This document shows positions 2,860 through 62,832 of a stretch of 64,000 nt of DNA, piece after piece (position 1 is the stretch's first letter; every line of letters begins with the position of its first letter). The translations under genes were made by a program, and so were the position numbers. Source of the DNA: Alphaproteobacteria bacterium 43-37 (GTDB lineage Bacteria > Pseudomonadota > Alphaproteobacteria > 43-37); NCBI GenBank assembly GCA_001897475.1, contig MKSY01000014.1, positions 25,523 through 89,522 on the forward strand, written 5' to 3'. The notes beneath the pieces were generated by a model that did no database searches, had not been told where the DNA came from, and saw only the letters and a program-made list of their open reading frames with translations.

Positions 2860-2901
2860 AGCTTAAATCCGATCCACATCATAGCTTAAATCCGATCCAC
2901 A
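2856..2901. repeat. Perfect 23-bp tandem duplication (tcatagcttaaatccgatccaca x2) at the wzm stop / wzt start junction
   Basis: Read directly: copy 1 at 2856-2878 carries the wzt start codon (rc ATG 2857-2859). Copy 2 at 2879-2901 carries the wzm stop codon (rc TAA 2886-2888). Each copy holds both signals. Confidence 0.8.
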
Positions 2902-3740
2902 ATTGTTTTCACGCGGGAGTTGAAAAAAACAAGGCCTCCAGCAAGGCACATCAAGATAACCAGGACGCTTATTAAAACAGCACCTACGTCCAGCGTTATA
3001 TTAAGTTTTGACAGCAAACACCAACGGAAGCCTTCTATGATTCCTACCAACGGATTGAGCTTGTATAACCACTGGTAACCCTCTGGAACCATGTTAACTG
3101 GGTACAATACTGGAGAAAGGTACAGGCTGATTTGGGCCATAAATGGCAACGCGTATTGGACATCTCGGTAAAGAGCATTGAGAATGGATAACCACAAGGC
3201 TATACTCAAGGCAAACAACACCATGAGCATCATAAAAAACGGCAAGAACATCACGGGCCAGCCCGGTGCTACTTTAAACCAAACCATAAGAGCCAACACG
3301 AGGATAAAAGTCACACTAAAATCCACCAAATGTGTCAGAACATTGGCAATAGGAGCCATAAGTCGTGGGAAGTAGATCTTAGATAGCATGCCACTTAACA
3401 TGACAAGGCTTGCGCTGCCTTGAGTAAAAGCCTGCTGGAAATACTGCCATGGTAAAAGAGCAACCGTGCAAAACAACACATAAGGTACATTTTGTGTTGG
3501 GATTTTCACAATTCGCCCTAAAATAAGTGTAAATATCGCCACCGTCAGCAATGGTTGCAATAAGGCCCAAACCACACCAATCGCGCTTTGTTTATAACGA
3601 ACTCGAATATCCCGTAATGTGAGGATTATCAAAAGCCAACGCATTGTCCATAGCTCACCAAAATCTGGCCAGGACCATCCACGGCTGGATTTTAAGATAA
3701 GCGGTTTTTCTAGTGACGGCTGAGCCATAATTAAATTCAC
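2886..3740 (-). CDS. ABC-2 type polysaccharide exporter permease (Wzm/KpsM-like)
   Basis: 284 aa with about six predicted TM helices and the ABC-2 family N-terminal pattern (LTLRDIRVRYKQSAIGVVWALLQPLL). Paired with the Wzt-like ATPase. Confidence 0.75.
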   Translation of the reverse strand: MNLIMAQPSLEKPLILKSSRGWSWPDFGELWTMRWLLIILTLRDIRVRYKQSAIGVVWALLQPLLTVAIFTLILGRIVKIPTQNVPYVLFCTVALLPWQYFQQAFTQGSASLVMLSGMLSKIYFPRLMAPIANVLTHLVDFSVTFILVLALMVWFKVAPGWPVMFLPFFMMLMVLFALSIALWLSILNALYRDVQYALPFMAQISLYLSPVLYPVNMVPEGYQWLYKLNPLVGIIEGFRWCLLSKLNITLDVGAVLISVLVILMCLAGGLVFFNSRVKTIVDRI

Positions 3741-5699: not shown

Positions 5700-5789
5700 G
5701 GAGGGATGCCGGAGCGGTTGAACGGGGCGGTCTCGAAAACCGTTGTGCACGCAAGTGTACCCAGGGTTCGAATCCCTGTCCCTCCGCCA
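5700..5789 (+). tRNA. tRNA-Ser (anticodon CGA)
   Basis: 90-nt cloverleaf GGAGGGATGCCGGAGCGGTTGAACGG...CCTCCGCCA with a long variable arm. Anticodon loop CU-CGA-AA. Encoded CCA end. Confidence 0.9.
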
Positions 5790-6301: not shown

Positions 6302-6320
6302 CTTAGGCTCCACCTTTTGT

Positions 6321-6394
6321 CGTCCTCCTCGCTCTTTTCTCTGTCACCCTCGCTCTTTTCTCTGTCACCCTCGCGAAAGCGGGGGGCCATATAT
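6321..6394 (-). repeat. Dispersed composite intergenic repeat, copy A (reverse orientation): header atatggccccccgctttcgcgagggtgacag plus 2 x 21-bp units
   Basis: The reverse complement reads tatatggccccccgctttcgcgagggtgacagagaaaagagcgagggtgacagagaaaagagcgagg, matching the headers at 8763, 40347, 40492 and 55557. Confidence 0.75.
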
Positions 6395-6422
6395 GACAAA
6401 GAAGGATAACTCACCCAGACCG

Positions 6423-6447
6423 CCACCACGGGTGGAGGTTTTTCGTT
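6423..6447 (+). terminator. Possible rho-independent terminator downstream of crcB
   Basis: Hairpin ccacc-acg-ggtgg followed by aggtttttcg on the plus strand. It is about 120 nt past the crcB stop, so the assignment is tentative. Confidence 0.3.
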
Positions 6448-8701: not shown

Positions 8702-8748
8702 TGTTTCCAGGCCTCACTCCCCTGTCACCCTTTAAGGAGTGAAGCGAT

Positions 8749-8947
8749 GTAGGAATCCAGGTTTTTTATGGGCCCCCGCTTTCGCGAGGGTGACAGGGAA
8801 AAGAGCGAGGGTGACAGGGAAAAGCGGACACCCCTCATTGTCATTCCCGCAACCCTCCTTTTGTCTTCCCGGACACCTCCTTTTTGTCTTCCCGGGCACC
8901 ACACTTTTGTCTTCCCGCACTTGATGCGGGATCCAGGTTTTTTATTG
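8749..8947 (+). repeat. Dispersed composite intergenic repeat, copy B
   Basis: Left end ggaatccaggttttttatgggcccccgctttcgcgagggtgacag. Then 2 x 21-bp gggaaaagagcgagggtgaca units, 3 x ~22-bp cctccttttgtcttcccggaca units, and a right end cacttgatgcgggatccaggttttttattg. The 14-bp direct repeat atccaggtttttta sits at both ends. Confidence 0.8.
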
Positions 8948-18104: not shown

Positions 18105-18929
18105 TTATCCCCTCAGGATGTTCAAGATGTCCTGTGGAGCTTGGTTTGCGCGGTTCAACATCTGATAACCAGCGCTTTGACGAATCAGCTGCACCGCAAG
18201 GTTTGCCATGCCTTCAGCAACATTCAGGTCAACGATGGCGCTGTTGGCTTGGACGAGGTTTTCTTTTGTAACCGACGCCACATTCAACGCGAATCCAAAA
18301 CGACTTTGAGCCGCACCAACCTGCGCACGGGCTGTGTTGATCGCAGCTTCTGCCGCGTTGATGAGACCAACAGCAGCTGTTGCGTTTGTCTGTGAGGTGA
18401 TGGTTCCACCCAAGGTTGTCGTTGCGTTCTGGCAGTCTGCAATTGTAACAGCAATGTAATCGTTAGTGGTGACACCCGTTGAGATTTGGATTTTCTTAGC
18501 GGAAAATGAGCCATCAAGCAATTTATTGCTGTTGTAAGAGGTTGAAACAGCGATACGGTCAACTTCGCTTAACAGAGATTGATATTCTGTGTTCAAGTCA
18601 GCCAAGTTTTGCGTTGACAACTGTTCAGACATCGCCTGAGTAGCCAGCTCACGCATACGAATGATGATTTCCGAGATCTGACCCATTGCAGATTCTGCTG
18701 TTTGAAGAGCGGCATCAGCGCTTTGGATGTTGATTAAACAGGAACCCATACCCTGGATCTGCCCCCTCAAAGAGGTGCTGATCGCCATGGATGCAGCATC
18801 ATCTTGGGCGCGAGCCACACGAAGACCAGAGGATACTGAGTACATTGTCTTGCTTGCCGTTCTAGAGGCTTCACCGATCAAGCGTGATGTTTGAAGGGCA
18901 ACGAGGTTGGTTTGAATACTACTTGTCAT
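18105..18929 (-). CDS. Flagellin (short, D0-D1 only), copy 2
   Basis: 274 aa. The first ~100 and last ~75 residues are nearly identical to copy 1, and the RBS/5' end is the same (caagtaggagaataaaaaATG). The central ~100 aa diverge. Confidence 0.9.
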   Translation of the reverse strand: MTSSIQTNLVALQTSRLIGEASRTASKTMYSVSSGLRVARAQDDAASMAISTSLRGQIQGMGSCLINIQSADAALQTAESAMGQISEIIIRMRELATQAMSEQLSTQNLADLNTEYQSLLSEVDRIAVSTSYNSNKLLDGSFSAKKIQISTGVTTNDYIAVTIADCQNATTTLGGTITSQTNATAAVGLINAAEAAINTARAQVGAAQSRFGFALNVASVTKENLVQANSAIVDLNVAEGMANLAVQLIRQSAGYQMLNRANQAPQDILNILRG

Positions 18930-35368: not shown

Positions 35369-35442
35369 TGGCTGGGGGACCTGGATTCGAACCAAGGTTC
35401 TCGGAGTCAGAGTCCGATGTTCTACCGCTAAACTATCCCCCA
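35369..35442 (-). tRNA. tRNA-Gln (anticodon CUG)
   Basis: The reverse complement TGGGGGATAGTTTAGCGGTAGAACATCGGACTCTGACTCCGAGAACCTTGGTTCGAATCCAGGTCCCCCAGCCA folds as a cloverleaf. Anticodon loop CU-CUG-AC. Confidence 0.85.
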
Positions 35443-38912: not shown

Positions 38913-40250
38913 ATGAAGAAAGTTCTACTCGGGGGAACAGCAGCATTCGGATTGCTTTTAGCATCACATGCAATGTCCCAAGATGCCGCGCCCAAGTCAA
39001 CAGCTGCAAAGCTGACGATCAGCGGTTCAACATCATTTCACGTTTCAGCATTTAGCCAAGACGCACACACAGCAGGCGGCAGTGCTCAGGGTTTTGCCAA
39101 TAGCGTAGACCCAGTCGGTAAAGGTCAAGGTTACAACTTCTCACAAGACGATTCAAACCTTGACTTCACATTCTCCGGCAGCACAGATTCTGGCATTGAT
39201 TACCTCGGCCGTATTAACTTCACAGGCCAATCAGGTTCAAGCACAGTTGCTAACAACTACTCAGTTCGCAGCCGCGTTCGTCAGAACTACGTTCAGTTGT
39301 CCGCTTGGGGCGCAACCATTCAAGGTGGTGCTCTTTGGGGTGTTGAAACAACCACTATCTCTGACGGCAGCGCCGTTATGCGTGGCGACGGTGGTTTCGG
39401 CAGTAACTGGTCAAGCCGTTTTAACGAGCCATTCAATACCAGCGGCTCAACTGGTAACATGCTTTATGGCGCCTATCTTGCTGGAACCAGCAACACGGGT
39501 AACAAAATTAACTTGATCACCCCAACTGTATTTGGCTTCCACTTGTCCGCAAGCTTAACACCAAACACATCACACACCGGTGACATGTATCACAATAACA
39601 ACTCTAACACTCAAGGCAAGCAAGCTAACTTTAATGCCGGAACAGACACTGGCATATCTGGCAGCTGGGCAACTCCTTACTTCGATGTTGGACACCAAGC
39701 TTATGCGATCTCTTACAACGACCACTTCGGTCAGTTTAACGTCGCATTGTCTGCGGCAACCGTTTTGTCAAACGACACACGGACCAGCACACCAACGGCA
39801 TCGACTGACTTGGCTAGCACCTACAACAAAACCAAAGGCTACTACGTTGGCGGTTTGTTCAGCGCTTATGGTTTTGACTTAGGCTTAGGCTTCTATGACA
39901 ACAAGAACACTGGTGTTACCATTGCTGATAGCAACAATGGCCGCAATGGTGGTAAAGTCTGGAACGTCGGCCTCGGTTGGTCCATGGACCAATGGGCACT
40001 TGCTGTTGGCTACTTGAACGGTAAGCGCAACAACGGTAAAAAGAACGACTTCCTTGATGTTAACACACAATCCAAAGCTGACATCTACTCTCTCACAGCA
40101 GATATGAAGTTGGCTGACGGTTTGACCGTTTATGGTGATTTGAACTACGCTAAAATGACAGATGGTTCAGTTAGAGATGCCGCAAATGGAACAGCAAAAG
40201 CTACCAATAAAGGTACAGTCTTCTTGCTCGGTACACGCGTAAACTTCTAA
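38913..40250 (+). CDS. Outer-membrane porin (Rhizobiales Porin_2/RopA-Omp2-like beta-barrel)
   Basis: 445 aa. Signal peptide MKKVLLGGTAAFGLLLASHAMSQ, Gly/Ser/Thr/Asn-rich alternating beta-strand pattern, C-terminal ...TRVNF. Long AT-rich leader and a strong terminator suggest high expression. Confidence 0.6.
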   Translation: MKKVLLGGTAAFGLLLASHAMSQDAAPKSTAAKLTISGSTSFHVSAFSQDAHTAGGSAQGFANSVDPVGKGQGYNFSQDDSNLDFTFSGSTDSGIDYLGRINFTGQSGSSTVANNYSVRSRVRQNYVQLSAWGATIQGGALWGVETTTISDGSAVMRGDGGFGSNWSSRFNEPFNTSGSTGNMLYGAYLAGTSNTGNKINLITPTVFGFHLSASLTPNTSHTGDMYHNNNSNTQGKQANFNAGTDTGISGSWATPYFDVGHQAYAISYNDHFGQFNVALSAATVLSNDTRTSTPTASTDLASTYNKTKGYYVGGLFSAYGFDLGLGFYDNKNTGVTIADSNNGRNGGKVWNVGLGWSMDQWALAVGYLNGKRNNGKKNDFLDVNTQSKADIYSLTADMKLADGLTVYGDLNYAKMTDGSVRDAANGTAKATNKGTVFLLGTRVNF

Positions 40251-40264
40251 TTATCGCCTGTTAC

Positions 40265-40298
40265 AAAAAAAGGGGGAGCTTCGGCTCCCTTTTTTTTA
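40265..40298 (+). terminator. Rho-independent terminator of the porin gene (bidirectional A-run/T-run)
   Basis: aaaaaaagggggagc-ttcg-gctcccttttttttt: a GC stem with a tetraloop and a 9-T tract. Confidence 0.8.
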
Positions 40299-40329
40299 TA
40301 ATGAAAAACTCAACCTACGGCAAGGATCT

Positions 40330-40745
40330 ACAGGATCCAGAACTTATATGGCCCCCCGCTTTCGCGAGGGTGACAGCCCCCTCATTGTCTTGCCCGCACA
40401 CCTCCCTTTGTCTTTCCGCAACCCCTCTCTTTGTCTTGCCCGCACACCATTTTTTGTCTTCCCGGACGCAGATCCGGGATCCAGGCATTTATATGGCCCC
40501 CCGCTTTCGCGAGGGTGACAAGTGAGAGTACGGGGATGACAGGGAAGAAGTGCGAGGGTGTCAGGGAAAAGAGCGAGGGTGACAAGTGAGAGTGCGAGGG
40601 TGTCAGGGAAAAGAGCGAGGGTGTCAGGGAAAAGAGCGAGGGTAACAAGTGAGAGCGCGAGGGCGACAGGAAAAAGAGCGTGGCAGTGGAAAAGTGTGAG
40701 TGTGGCTGGCAGTGGAAAAGTGCGAGGAGGACAGGCTGGCTCCCG
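40330..40745 (+). repeat. Dispersed composite intergenic repeat, copy C: two headers plus ~22-bp units x4 and a ~10-unit array of 21-bp tandem repeats
   Basis: Header ggatccagaacttatatggccccccgctttcgcgagggtgaca at 40332, then 4 cctttgtcttKcccgcaca units. A second header at 40473. At 40511-40745 a tandem array alternates gagggtgtcagggaaaagagc and gagggtgacaagtgagagtgc. Confidence 0.8.
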
Positions 40746-40810
40746 TAATGGCGGCGCGTACAGGCCCTCGGCCTTAATGCCGAGAAAGATGCATGAACAA
40801 AGTAAGGGCC

Positions 40811-42091
40811 TTAACTGCCCACGGTATTTGCTTCAACGTTTGCCCCAAAAATTTGGATGTTCCGAGTCCGCTTCATTTCCCTCATGAGCCTTTGGGCCAT
40901 TTGAGACATCTTCTGGTCGATCAATGACTCCTTAGCCTGCTCACGCGTCGGAACTTGCGGTTTAAGCTCATTGATTTTACAAACTGCCATCGATAGCATA
41001 ACACGCCCTGCATTAATAGCAGGAGTTAGCTGTTCAGCAGGCATTTGCTTTAAGATATCTAAAAGCTTTGGGTTAAGACGATTTGGATGAACATGCTCAT
41101 TCAATGTAACTTGAATTCTTTGCGCATACTGCTCTTTGACTTTCTTTTCTCTCATCGAACAGGACATTTTTTCTTGGCGGATTTTATGAATCAGCTCAGC
41201 GGCAGCACGCGCTTCATTTTCAGAAGAAAATGGAATTGCCAATTGCAAAAGGCTGTATTCTACAGTATCACTAGGGTGCCTAAAGAAAACATAGTATCCA
41301 CCCTGGCCACGAACGGGCTGTGAAAGCTGCCCTTCCTTCAATCCTAAAATTGCACTTTCCAAAACCGGCTCAAATACTCCTTTAATTATCTGCCCGATGA
41401 GGCCACCTTGGGCTGCACTAGCAGATTTTGACAAATGCCTCGCCAATTCAGGGAATCGAGCACCTTGCTTGAGCCTTTCTAAAGCTGTCGTTGCCTCTTT
41501 AAGAGCCAAAGCATCTTGTGAGGGCGATTCAACAGGGAAAAACATTTCTGAAATCGTATGAATCCCCACTAAAGCTTGAGCTTCTGCATTTTTAATAAGA
41601 GCATCAACCTCAACATTGGAAACTAGGTTTTCACGGCTTCTTACAGATTGCGATACCAACTCACCCCATACCATTGACGCATGCACTTGATCCAACACAA
41701 TGTATTCTGGAACATTGAGCTTAGCCGCAATCTTAAGCAGATCACCAGCCGCCATACCTTCCCGCTGTTCAATACTGGCCAACCCTCGCATGATATCCGC
41801 CTTTGTGGGCTGAATGCCGCGCTCTTTTGCCTCAATAATTTGCAGGCGCTCTTCAATCATCTTTTTTAGGACTTTTTCACGCAATTGAGTTCGCGCTTCA
41901 GAAGTATCTGGCATACCAGATGTGTGAATCACATATGTAAGCCTTAGATTTAAATCCACCTCAGTAATGGGTGTGTCATCTACACTTGCGGCCACAGTAA
42001 GATCTGCAGCTTGAAGCGTGTATGAACTTAAGCAAAAGACAACGCATACGATAAAATAAAAACATTTTGCGGGAAAGGATTTCACGTTCAC
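40811..42091 (-). CDS. surA: Periplasmic chaperone / peptidyl-prolyl isomerase SurA-like
   Basis: 426 aa. Signal peptide, SurA_N-like helical region, one parvulin-like segment. The neighbouring lptFGD genes support the call by context. Confidence 0.5.
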   Translation of the reverse strand: MNVKSFPAKCFYFIVCVVFCLSSYTLQAADLTVAASVDDTPITEVDLNLRLTYVIHTSGMPDTSEARTQLREKVLKKMIEERLQIIEAKERGIQPTKADIMRGLASIEQREGMAAGDLLKIAAKLNVPEYIVLDQVHASMVWGELVSQSVRSRENLVSNVEVDALIKNAEAQALVGIHTISEMFFPVESPSQDALALKEATTALERLKQGARFPELARHLSKSASAAQGGLIGQIIKGVFEPVLESAILGLKEGQLSQPVRGQGGYYVFFRHPSDTVEYSLLQLAIPFSSENEARAAAELIHKIRQEKMSCSMREKKVKEQYAQRIQVTLNEHVHPNRLNPKLLDILKQMPAEQLTPAINAGRVMLSMAVCKINELKPQVPTREQAKESLIDQKMSQMAQRLMREMKRTRNIQIFGANVEANTVGS

Positions 42092-51964: not shown

Positions 51965-52358
51965 GTGAGAGGGTCGGGCAGTTGCTACAGGAATTGCATT
52001 GAGCAGACTTAAGCTCCTGTAGAGGAAAGTCCGGGCTCCAGAGAGACAAGGTGCCGGGTAACGCCCGGCGAGGGTGACCTTAGGGAAAGTGCAACAGAAA
52101 ATATACCGCTTGGGCTCGTCTCAAGTAAGGGTGAAATGGTGCGGTAAGAGCGCACCGCACTGGCGGTAACGTTAGTGGCAGTGTAAACCCCACCTGGTGC
52201 AAGATCAAATAGGCGTATGGCGCTGCAACCAGCAGCAGGCAAGTCTCTCAGCCACATACGCGGGTAGATCGCTAAAGGTCCATAGCAATATGTACCTCAG
52301 ATGAATAGCTGCCGGCCTGAAAATGGCCACAGAACCCGGCTTACAGATCCTCTCAGTT
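51965..52358 (+). ncRNA. rnpB: RNase P RNA (bacterial type A)
   Basis: Universally conserved blocks read directly. GAGGAAAGTCCGGGCTCC (P4 5' strand), GCCGGGTAACGCCCGGC, AGTGCAACAGAAAA, GGTAAGGGTGAAATGGTGCGGTAAGAGCGCACC, GTAAACCCCACCTGGTGCAAG, ACAGAACCCGGCTTA (P4 3' strand). Ends pair as P1 (tgagagg / cctctca). Confidence 0.85.
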
Positions 52359-52483
52359 ACTAGCTCATACTAGCTCGTGATTTTTTGCAGATTATTTAAA
52401 ATGCTTAACATAAGTTCAGGAAAAGTGAGCTTCACATAAAACTTTATTCAAAAGCTTTTTGCACGCGGGCGCCCTGAATAAGG

Positions 52484-55040: not shown

Positions 55041-55187
55041 CCTTGCACACCGCCCTTTGTCTTTCCCGCGCACCTCCTTTTGGCCACCCCGGATGCCTCC
55101 TTTTGTCTTTCCCGCGCACCTCCTTTTGGCCACCCCGCACACCCCTCTTTGTCTTTCCCACACTTGATGCGGAACCCAGGCTTTTAT
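55041..55187 (+). repeat. Dispersed composite intergenic repeat, copy D (left half, interrupted)
   Basis: 2 x 43-bp ccctttgtctttcccgcgcacctccttttggccaccccg units, then cacttgatgcggaacccaggcttttat. This is the same right-end module as copy B. Confidence 0.7.
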
Positions 55188-55548
55188 CACTGCTGTCCGG
55201 GGAAAATAGAAGAGGAAGATCATGAGAATGCCCAAGAGAGTTGTTTGGTTAGTATAGGTACAGTTTTGGGAGGTTTTAAGGTGGGCTGAGAAAAGAGGCT
55301 TGTTCTGATTAGCACGCTCACATCTTTGATTTTAAAGCTTTTGCGATAACGAATCGGCCTGGTGGTGCTCAACGATGGACTGAAACGAGCGACGCGGAAG
55401 GCTCTTTAAAAGTTGAACGAATATGCTAGATTGGTACACGGAGCTGCTCCTGTTCAAAATGAAGTTTTAACACCCTCATTTTAACAGCAATCAAAGAGCA
55501 GCTCTATCCTTTTTAACCCTCATACTCTATTTTCCCCGGACAGCAGTG
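55188..55548. mobile_element. MITE-like non-autonomous insertion (361 bp) with 22-bp terminal inverted repeats
   Basis: TIR-L cactgctgtccggggaaaatag (55188-55209) and TIR-R ctattttccccggacagcagtg (55527-55548) are exact reverse complements. Flanks gcttttat / gctttttat look like an 8-9-bp target-site duplication. The insertion splits a repeat-family header that is contiguous at 40480-40503. Confidence 0.5.
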
Positions 55549-55646
55549 AGGCTTTTTATGGCCCCCCGCTTTCGCGAGGGTGACAGGAAAAAGAGCGAGG
55601 GTGACAGGAAAAAGAGCGAGGGTGACAAGAAAAAGAGCGAGGGTGC
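55549..55646 (+). repeat. Dispersed composite intergenic repeat, copy E (right half: header plus 4 x 21-bp units)
   Basis: aggctttttatggccccccgctttcgcgagggtgacaggaaaaagagcgagggtgacaggaaaaagagcgagggtgacaagaaaaagagcgagggtgc. Confidence 0.75.
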
Positions 55647-55706
55647 TTCTATGAAGAGTGTCAAGCATAATTTGGGATGTTCCGCCATAATTCATTCTTT
55701 TTAATG

Positions 55707-55798
55707 AGGCCAATAGCGCAATAGGATGACGCTGAGGTAACATGGATGAAAACGAGGCCAATAGCGCAATAGGATGACACTAAGGTAACATGGATGAA
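55707..55798 (+). repeat. 2 x ~45-bp direct repeat upstream of the sulP-like transporter gene
   Basis: gaggccaatagcgcaataggatgacRctRaggtaacatggatgaa occurs at 55707-55750 and 55754-55798, separated by 3 nt, with 2 mismatches. Confidence 0.7.
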
Positions 55799-62755: not shown

Positions 62756-62832
62756 GCACCCGTAGCTCAGCTGGATAGAGTGCTGCCCTCCGAAGGCAGA
62801 GGTCGTGAGTTCGAATCTCGCCGGGTGCGCCA
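62756..62832 (+). tRNA. tRNA-Arg (anticodon CCG)
   Basis: GCACCCGTAGCTCAGCTGGATAGAGTGCTGCCCTCCGAAGGCAGAGGTCGTGAGTTCGAATCTCGCCGGGTGCGCCA. Anticodon loop CU-CCG-AA. Encoded CCA end. Confidence 0.9.

Follow-up and report, generated by a model that had tools for sequence, protein, structure and literature searches.

We analysed a window of 64,000 nucleotides from the uncultured Alphaproteobacteria bacterium 43-37 (GenBank assembly GCA_001897475.1, contig MKSY01000014.1, positions 25,523 to 89,522 of the forward strand), in which a composite repeat occupies four gene junctions. As the initial annotation had described and Pfam confirmed, these junctions are flanked by genes for CrcB and ribosomal L20 (locus A), MgsA/RarA and cytochrome c1 (locus B), a porin and SurA (locus C), and an unassigned open reading frame (ORF) and SulP (locus D), and all four loci lie downstream of coding regions. 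The dispersed repeat proposed earlier at five header sites held up: the header ATATGGCCCCCCGCTTTCGCGAGGGTGACA had five matches with at most three mismatches in the window (6363 on the minus strand; 8766, 40346, 40491, and 55556 on the plus strand) but none in 100 shuffles, with arrays where they had been placed. We consider it probable that this repeat belongs to the CGTC/TGTC-tagged family of REP (repetitive extragenic palindrome) hairpins, known as dRS3/NTS or Ssn-related motifs (SRM), with a GIY-YIG partner in the same genome and arrays of half-sites on the tag side of its hairpins.

On the strand carrying TGTC, the header reads TGTC-ACCCTCGC-GAAA-GCGGGGGG-CCAT and is referred to here as the R arm. 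Its tag is unpaired, its 8-nt stem contains a T·G pair and an A·G mismatch, its loop (GAAA) has 4 nt, and its tail is CCA. A second hairpin, the L arm, lies in the opposite orientation 6-9 nt from the R-arm tail and was found in two forms, TGTC-TTCCCGCA-CTTGA-TGCGGGAA-CCCAGG and TGTC-TTCCCGGA-CGCAGA-TCCGGGAT-CCAGG. The composite is a head-to-head heterodimer of the two hairpins, with the tags outside and the tails inside. The string gRatccagg that had been noticed before the header is indeed present, but it is no mere prefix, being the tail of the partner L-arm hairpin. Folded as single-stranded DNA, the dimer gives two hairpins, and pairing between the two tags closes the structure (DNA z -3.6 for each strand). 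Head-to-head dimers were present at loci B, C, and D. The expectation of further genomic copies was borne out, as the window and the metagenome loci of this lineage together contained 46 non-redundant headers and 110 non-redundant hairpin elements; on visual inspection, an L arm lies 6-9 nt from most of the 46 headers. The features of the window are listed below, with "wing" denoting an array of half-site units.

Locus A
6318-6362, plus strand: R-side wing, two half-site units (TGTC, 5' half-stem, and linker) immediately before a solo R-type hairpin; tag strand 87% pyrimidine
6363-6390, plus strand: R-type SRM, a CGTC-1-like REP hairpin, TGTC-ACCCTCGC-GAAA-GCGGGGGG-CCAT; SRM pattern and header search
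Locus B
8740-8762, plus strand: degenerate L-arm remnant (tail …GGAATCCAGG) facing the next hairpin; from sequence reading, fails the SRM pattern
8768-8795, minus strand: R-type SRM hairpin; header search and SRM pattern
8796-8827, minus strand: R wing, about 1.5 units of 21 bp; Tandem Repeats Finder and unit calling
8838-8907, plus strand: L wing, three units of 22-23 bp (TGTC, TTCCCGSA, and linker); Tandem Repeats Finder and sequence reading
8908-8936, plus strand: L-type SRM hairpin TGTC-TTCCCGCA-CTTGA-TGCGGGAT-CCAG; SRM pattern; DNA fold -8.3 kcal/mol, z -3.0
Locus C
40320-40339, plus strand: degenerate L-arm remnant (…GGATCCAG); sequence reading
40348-40375, minus strand: R-type SRM hairpin number 1, without a wing; header search and SRM pattern
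40377-40454, plus strand: L wing, about 3.5 units of 23 bp; Tandem Repeats Finder; alone unstructured as single-stranded DNA, z +0.4
40455-40484, plus strand: L-type SRM hairpin TGTC-TTCCCGGA-CGCAGA-TCCGGGAT-CCAG; SRM pattern; part of the three-way-junction dimer fold, DNA z -3.6 on both strands
40493-40520, minus strand: R-type SRM hairpin number 2, in a head-to-head heterodimer with 40455-40484 across an 8-nt spacer; header search, fold, and SRM pattern
40521-40735, minus strand: R wing, about ten units of 21-22 bp in A-B-B order, with a 63-bp higher-order period and distal decay; alone z about 0; 79% purine on the plus strand
Locus D
55041-55149, plus strand: L wing, about five units of 23 bp; Tandem Repeats Finder
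55150-55180, plus strand: degenerate L-type hairpin with stem mismatches; fails the SRM pattern
55188-55548, no strand assigned: 361-bp insertion resembling a miniature inverted-repeat transposable element (MITE) in the dimer spacer; inverted ends 55187-55210 and 55526-55549
55558-55585, minus strand: R-type SRM hairpin; header search and SRM pattern
55586-55645, minus strand: R wing, three units of 21 bp; Tandem Repeats Finder and unit calling

Family identity and the putative partner nuclease

The initial annotation had not recognised the repeat as a named family; however, the header and its partner arm match both SRM/NTS (PMC11893778) and the CGTC REPs (PMC3733652). These are names for one family, called dRS3/NTS in Neisseria, RPE-6/RPE-4 in Rickettsia, and SRM generally. 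With the published SRM pattern, HGTCWYN(0-2)YYVSBRHN(0-5)WNVSBRGN(0-2)RNCYNB (PMC11893778), seven sites were obtained in the window, compared with 0.14 on average and at most 1 in any of 50 dinucleotide shuffles; the seven are all five headers and the L arms at 8908-8936 and 40455-40484. Both arm types (TGTC-stem-loop-stem-CCA) carry a directional upstream tag and a cytosine right after the palindrome. A literature search by sequence string returned a Neisseria primer match only.

According to Chenal et al. (2025, Nat Commun), the Neisseria NTS (CGTCATTCCCGCGMAVGCGGGAATCYRG) and its SRM relatives flank SsnA, a single-domain GIY-YIG protein of about 94 aa, which binds the hairpin as single-stranded DNA only and on the tagged strand only, binds neither duplex DNA nor RNA, and cuts a few nucleotides upstream of the tag (PMC11893778). 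From the published 37-nt and 28-nt oligonucleotides, we read the cut as lying 3 nt 5' of the tag (PMC11893778). The present repeat shares with that system the directional hairpin, the upstream xGTC tag, the C after the palindrome, the match to the degenerate pattern, the many intergenic copies, and a small single-domain GIY-YIG gene with the motif on both sides, and in other phyla the 21-mer described below is usually partnered by the canonical NTS (CGTCATTCCCGCGAAAGCGGGAATCCAG). It differs in that nearly every element bears half-site units in tandem at its tag side, only 6-9 nt separate the two arms of the dimer, the R-arm stem is imperfect, and the host is an uncultured alphaproteobacterium with 43% G+C.

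The CGTC REPs of Di Nocera et al. (2013) have an unpaired CGTC, TGTC, or CCTC tag, an 8-9-bp stem, a 4-5-nt loop, and a 3-nt CCA-like tail, and they mostly form head-to-head heterodimers between convergent or co-directional genes; CGTC-1 was equated with Neisseria dRS3 and Rickettsia RPE-6 (PMC3733652). The window elements follow this anatomy, with TGTC / 8 / GAAA / CCA in the R arm and TGTC / 8 / CTTGA or CGCAGA / CCAG in the L arms, and are likewise arranged head-to-head, often as heterodimers, downstream of ORFs; the 6-nt L-arm loop and the R-stem mismatches are minor departures. Thus, tag, 8-bp stem, 4-5-nt loop, CCA tail, heterodimers, alphaproteobacterial bias, and location between convergent or co-directional genes are shared with CGTC-1/-2 REPs, dRS3/NIME, and RPE-6/RPE-4. 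In contrast, clusters are rare in the CGTC REPs and reiterate whole elements (PMC3733652), whereas the arrays here reiterate half-hairpins, and the L arms here can have 6-nt loops.

The distribution of the hairpin extends well beyond this lineage. With one genome per species, the 21-mer CCCCGCTTTCGCGAGGGTGAC occurred in at least 102 exact-match stretches from about 14 phyla by record titles; among the matches listed were Pseudomonadota (alpha, beta, gamma), Bacteroidota, Chloroflexota, Cyanobacteriota (Sericytochromatia), Nitrospirota, Patescibacteria, Bdellovibrionota, Planctomycetota, Hydrogenedentota, Acidobacteriota, Elusimicrobiota, Gemmatimonadota, Margulisiibacteriota, and Desulfobacterota. 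The usual order in those genomes is CGTCATTCCCGCGAAAGCGGGAATCCAG, about 30 nt, and then CTGGACCCCCGCTTTCGCGAGGGTGACG, and the partner arm shows compensatory stem changes between species. At several of these loci, a 21-mer hairpin is nested inside a hairpin of the same family, namely in L073, L084, and L105 (Dehalococcoidia OZ244817.1) and in L011, L031, L065, and L074 (metagenome-assembled genomes, MAGs, of Gammaproteobacteria and Nitrosomonadales). Examples are GGATTCCCGC[CCCCGCTTTCGCGAGGGTGACGTTC]TTTCGCGGGAATGAC and ATTCCCGCCTTC[…]AGGGAAT, which suggests insertion into, or partial duplication within, the loops of existing elements.

A partner gene was found in the lineage itself. Motif search followed by phmmer over all fetched loci identified P0011, a 98-aa single-domain GIY-YIG protein, at the lineage loci L123 and L136 (Pfam PF01541, E 2e-15, residues 3-77). 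In L149 its gene (3001-3297) has a winged head-to-head dimer upstream (SRMs 2757-2784 and 2791-2820) and a winged R arm downstream (SRM 3368-3395), which is the published SRM-ssnA-SRM layout. The spacing of Y7, Y18, and E65 in P0011 equals that of Y6, Y17, and E64, the catalytic residues mutated in N. meningitidis (Nm) SsnA. P0011 had 491 relatives at E <= 1e-10, the best 120 of which were mostly 93-110 aa long, and in PDB only a weak match to UPF0213. P0011 is a putative member of the SsnA clade (cd10448; Nm SsnA CAX49033.1). By exact look-up, P0011 was placed on JAFKFD010000103.1 of GCA_017308305.1, the MAG that contains the window's porin locus, and it is likewise present in JGI sample 3300003757 together with the window's contig. 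The link between window and P0011 is formed by MAG binning, co-occurrence in the same metagenomes, and the identical motif. In other phyla, an Ssn homologue lies within 50 nt of the 21-mer at three loci (L022, L024, and L098).

We also considered whether these are REPIN-type elements mobilised by RAYT, an IS200/IS605-like HUH tyrosine transposase. Inverted doublets of imperfect palindromes in many copies are REPIN-like, but the tag is TGTC/CGTC and not GTAG, Di Nocera et al. noted the lack of a transposase associated with CGTC repeats (PMC3733652), a RAYT flanked by such repeats is not known from the literature, and the gene flanked by the motif encodes a GIY-YIG protein instead. No RayT homologue was detected at E <= 10 with the E. 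coli RayT query in the fetched loci, about 390 kb of this lineage and 720 kb of other phyla, an absence that is not proof in an incomplete genome. With the wrong tag and no RayT homologue found, this explanation was rejected as extremely unlikely. The likeness to REPIN-RAYT and E. coli BIMEs is one of organisation: inverted doublets of short palindromes in many copies, a single-copy gene for the cognate nuclease with the repeat on either side, and recognition of single-stranded DNA are shared, whereas the GTAG tag and the HUH tyrosine transposase have their counterparts here in a different tag and a GIY-YIG protein. Pneumococcal BOX elements are likewise composite, dispersed, and intergenic, with one module that varies in copy number between loci; their variable module sits between two end modules and is not a half-hairpin, and they are not known to be related in sequence to the present repeat.

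Half-site arrays on the tag side

Tandem Repeats Finder placed 21-bp arrays at 6327-6374, 8784-8824, 40509-40680 (8.1 copies), and 55574-55645, and 23-bp arrays at 8838-8919, 40381-40464, and 55045-55163; a repeat search of the window sorted the arrays into the same families. On the tag strand, the 21-bp R-wing unit is TGTC ACCCTCGC TCTTTTCCC, that is, the tag, the 5' half-stem of the R arm, and a 9-nt linker. The L-wing unit of 22-23 bp is TGTC TTCCCGCA CACCTCCTTT, with the tag, the 5' half-stem of the L arm, and a linker. In both cases the similarity between unit and hairpin ends at the stem-loop boundary. The largest array had been given an effective period of 42 bp; its higher-order period is 63 bp (89% matches), because its units follow one another in the order A-B-B. 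The units on the other side, earlier described as 22-43 bp, measure 20-24 bp with a mode of 22-23. The wings contain 76-87% pyrimidine on the tag strand, and alone they are unstructured as single-stranded DNA (z 0 to +0.9). An earlier concern that the spurious ORFs of these arrays might contaminate annotations found no support: none of four such ORFs from the largest array region was in a collection of 15 billion proteins by exact-sequence look-up, and gene callers had left the spacer empty.

The arrays are a general property of the elements of this lineage. At least one half-site unit lies directly upstream of the tag in 42 of 46 R arms and 49 of 64 L arms, with a maximum of ten, compared with 1 of 40 and 0 of 55 control sites 400 nt away. 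Units were found on the tag side in 91 of 110 elements but on the tail side in only five of 110. In other lineages carrying the same 21-mer, neighbouring units were seen at 7 of 105 sites versus 3 of 95 controls among the matches listed, and half-site wings are essentially absent there. Thus, the 21-23-bp arrays are a lineage-specific reiteration of the tag, the 5' half-stem, and a pyrimidine-rich linker of about 9 nt. Half-site wings were not found described in PMC11893778, in PMC3733652, or by full-text literature searches; the half-hairpin arrays, their tag-side polarity, and the variation in unit number are new here, as a lineage-specific variant of a known family.

The initial annotation had suggested that 21-bp units, being two helical turns, would place binding sites on one face of the helix. 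The modal R-wing unit is indeed 21 bp, and units retain a recognisable 12-nt core, as expected of iteron-like duplex sites. However, such phasing is not kept, because unit length varies from 17 to 26 bp and most L units measure 21-23 bp; moreover, an element may have anything between 0 and 10 copies, and the number changes from one assembly to another. The arrays are not associated with a replication or regulator gene, their neighbours being unrelated housekeeping genes, and the only protein linked to the family binds single-stranded and not duplex DNA (PMC11893778). The core is also no better conserved than the linker: when first units were aligned from the hairpin, conservation of the linker T-run equalled or exceeded that of the half-stem, so there is no sign of individual selection on the half-stem copies or of selective constraint on the half-stem within units. 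Phased duplex sites are accordingly a very improbable account of the arrays.

A role at the RNA level, in which 3'-end hairpins stabilise or terminate the transcripts of convergent genes and the wings, CU-rich and GA-rich, form a long stem with each other, would suit the position of all four loci downstream of coding regions. In RNA, the T·G position of the R arm would become a G·U pair, the minus-strand RNA of the composite folds more stably than its shuffles (z -3.3), and RNA roles are favoured for such REPs by Di Nocera et al. (PMC3733652). On the plus strand, however, the fold was not significant (z -1.8), and a long pairing between wings would drift out of register, because L units are 22-23 bp and R units 21 bp. 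At the porin, a canonical intrinsic terminator already precedes the element; it was the only clear terminator in a scan of 40200-40900, and a promoter scan of the same interval gave no promoter-like site. Rfam 15 gave no match on the elements at the gathering threshold across the window and only chance-level hits at E <= 10 for the locus, and SsnA does not bind RNA (PMC11893778). We therefore regard an RNA-level role as improbable. Wing-wing pairing as a rationale for the arrays was likewise unsupported, since the wings have no structure of their own, their units differ in length between the L and R sides, and the fold of the composite improves only modestly on shuffles.

The arrays vary by whole units. 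Neighbouring units often form identical blocks of one to three units (L115, L127, L128, and L132), which indicates local amplification. Variation in unit number had been anticipated and was found in two assemblies of one locus, L119 and L142, which are 99.4% identical over 5.1 kb and whose sole indel is one 23-bp L-wing unit. In R arms, similarity to the hairpin is higher for proximal than for distal units (10.5 versus 9.25 of 12 positions; Wilcoxon p 0.019), and in L arms the trend is weaker (p 0.10); the unit-calling threshold contributes to this gradient. Simple slippage is a doubtful source of the first unit, for which only 2-5 nt of microhomology are available.

Assemblies, insertions, and other features of the window

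The lineage-specific header was found in 39 metagenome stretches. One metagenome contig matches a contig of the window's MAG at 100% identity over 4.4 kb, and the metagenome contigs therefore represent the same population. Three independent assemblies (ENA, JGI, and NCBI GCA_017308305.1) agree at every base of the porin-surA spacer, and two independent short-read (Logan) contigs, L004 and L005, stop at the same base of the header (…GCGAGGGTG; window position 40372). These observations indicate that the element is no assembly artefact and is repeated in the genome, and that the repeat fragments short-read assemblies of this organism; contig ends inside the header are as expected for a repeat longer than the assembler's k-mer. 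Orthologous loci gave weak empty-site evidence: porin relatives at 72% and 63% identity have other neighbours and no element, and an 82% relative has a spacer of 366 bp compared with 560 bp.

The stretches 55041-55187 and 55549-55646, previously taken as separate pieces, constitute one element split by the 361-bp MITE-like insertion (55188-55548). The inverted ends of the MITE are CACTRCTGTCCGGGGAAA, perfect for 24 nt in the window copy, which is flanked by a target duplication of about 10-11 bp (AGGCTTTT(T)AT). Further copies, 92-98% identical, were found in L119, L122, L124, L140, L142, and L145. The five distinct insertion sites observed are all within SRM composites; three of them have a hairpin loop at their centre (duplicating GCACTTGATGC or CGCGTATGCG), one falls in a dimer spacer (the window copy), and one in a wing unit. 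Thus, the MITE appears to target SRM hairpins, much as IS1397 targets the loops of REPs in E. coli. Between L119 (1254-1309) and L142, all seven substitution sites fall within 56 nt inside the MITE copy, a clustering that may reflect assembly mixing between MITE copies or gene conversion.

Other features were recorded in the window. A terminator-like hairpin motif, (T)ATAACGAAAAACCTCCACC-N4-GGTGGAGG, has its sole window copy at 6422-6444 on the minus strand and recurs right beside several SRM composites of the lineage (L128, L131, L139, and L140). Between the SRM wing of locus D and the sulP start, 55706-55798 is a 48-bp tandem repeat (GAGGCCAATAGCGCAATAGGATGACACTAAGGTAACATGGATGAAAAC; 1.9 copies, 95% identical). 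A perfect 23-bp tandem duplication (TCATAGCTTAAATCCGATCCACA x2) at 2856-2901 spans the junction of the minus-strand ORFs 1648-2859 and 2886-3740. Two adjacent minus-strand ORFs of 274 aa each, 16950-17774 and 18105-18929, lie 1155 bp apart and look like a tandem gene duplication, with 84% identity over 300 nt between 16949-17248 and 18104-18403 and several shorter repeats. The window also encodes ordinary housekeeping RNAs, namely a bacterial class A RNase P RNA (51966-52359; 314 bits), tRNA-Ser(CGA) (5700-5789), tRNA-Gln(CTG) (35369-35442), and tRNA-Arg(CCG) (62756-62832).

Origin of the arrays and significance

By homology with N. meningitidis SsnA, we proposed that each arm would fold as a hairpin when the DNA becomes single-stranded, and that the predicted Ssn nuclease would bind this hairpin on the 5'-TGTC strand and cut within the first wing linker, a few nucleotides 5' of the tag. 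The elements would occupy dead or neutral space between convergent or tandem genes, beyond the intrinsic terminator at the porin locus, and would persist, probably, as semi-selfish or domesticated nuclease partners. At least one wing unit seems to have been part of the element as it spread; the arrays would then gain and lose whole units locally via slipped-strand or unequal recombination. The strict tag-side polarity, the local homogenisation of units, and the one-unit difference between assemblies are observed. That nuclease nicks might in addition stimulate recombination in the arrays is plausible, because the wings are exclusively tag-side, but we hold it to be doubtful.

The wings might even be direct scars of nuclease action. 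An Ssn nick upstream of the tag would prime strand-displacement synthesis, and the hairpin flap would be religated, or a collapsed fork repaired out of register, so that a new unit arises beside the hairpin and older ones are pushed outward. This would account for arrays confined to the side where SsnA cuts (PMC11893778), for unit-hairpin similarity that stops exactly at the stem-loop boundary, for proximal units nearer the hairpin in sequence, and for wings that are structure-free as single-stranded DNA. On the other hand, the gradient is weak and partly a product of the unit-calling threshold, the identical blocks inside arrays point to ordinary slippage throughout the array, other lineages possess the motif and an Ssn gene but lack wings, and the linker is not accounted for. 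In addition, the cut position is taken from Neisseria and may not be that of this enzyme. We therefore regard such scars as an unlikely origin. It is correspondingly a tentative suggestion that the wings are in vivo footprints of Ssn, a nuclease-driven generator of polar tandem arrays, whose half-stems may pair in alternative registers with the 3' half-stem and so shift the cut in 21-bp steps.

Several points weigh against our assignment of the repeat to the tagged REP family with a partner nuclease and half-site arrays. The stability of the R arm as DNA is modest, because its 8-bp stem in this lineage contains the A·G mismatch and the T·G pair noted above. The window and the P0011 gene lie on different contigs of a binned MAG, and the lone one-unit indel that separates L119 from L142 might in principle stem from assembly. 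Furthermore, the first wing unit does not follow from this account, since its linker TCTTTTCCC cannot be obtained from the hairpin.

CGTC-type REPs were long an orphan family and have been linked to Ssn single-strand nucleases only since 2025. To this picture, the present lineage adds a one-sided array of half-hairpins on the side that is cut in Neisseria, whole-unit length variation between populations, and a second mobile element that inserts into the hairpin loops. In practical terms, short-read assemblies break at these repeats, and do so exactly within the header. Should the arrays be a record of nuclease action, they would provide a sequence-level read-out of Ssn activity in uncultured bacteria, together with a set of substrates for biochemistry.

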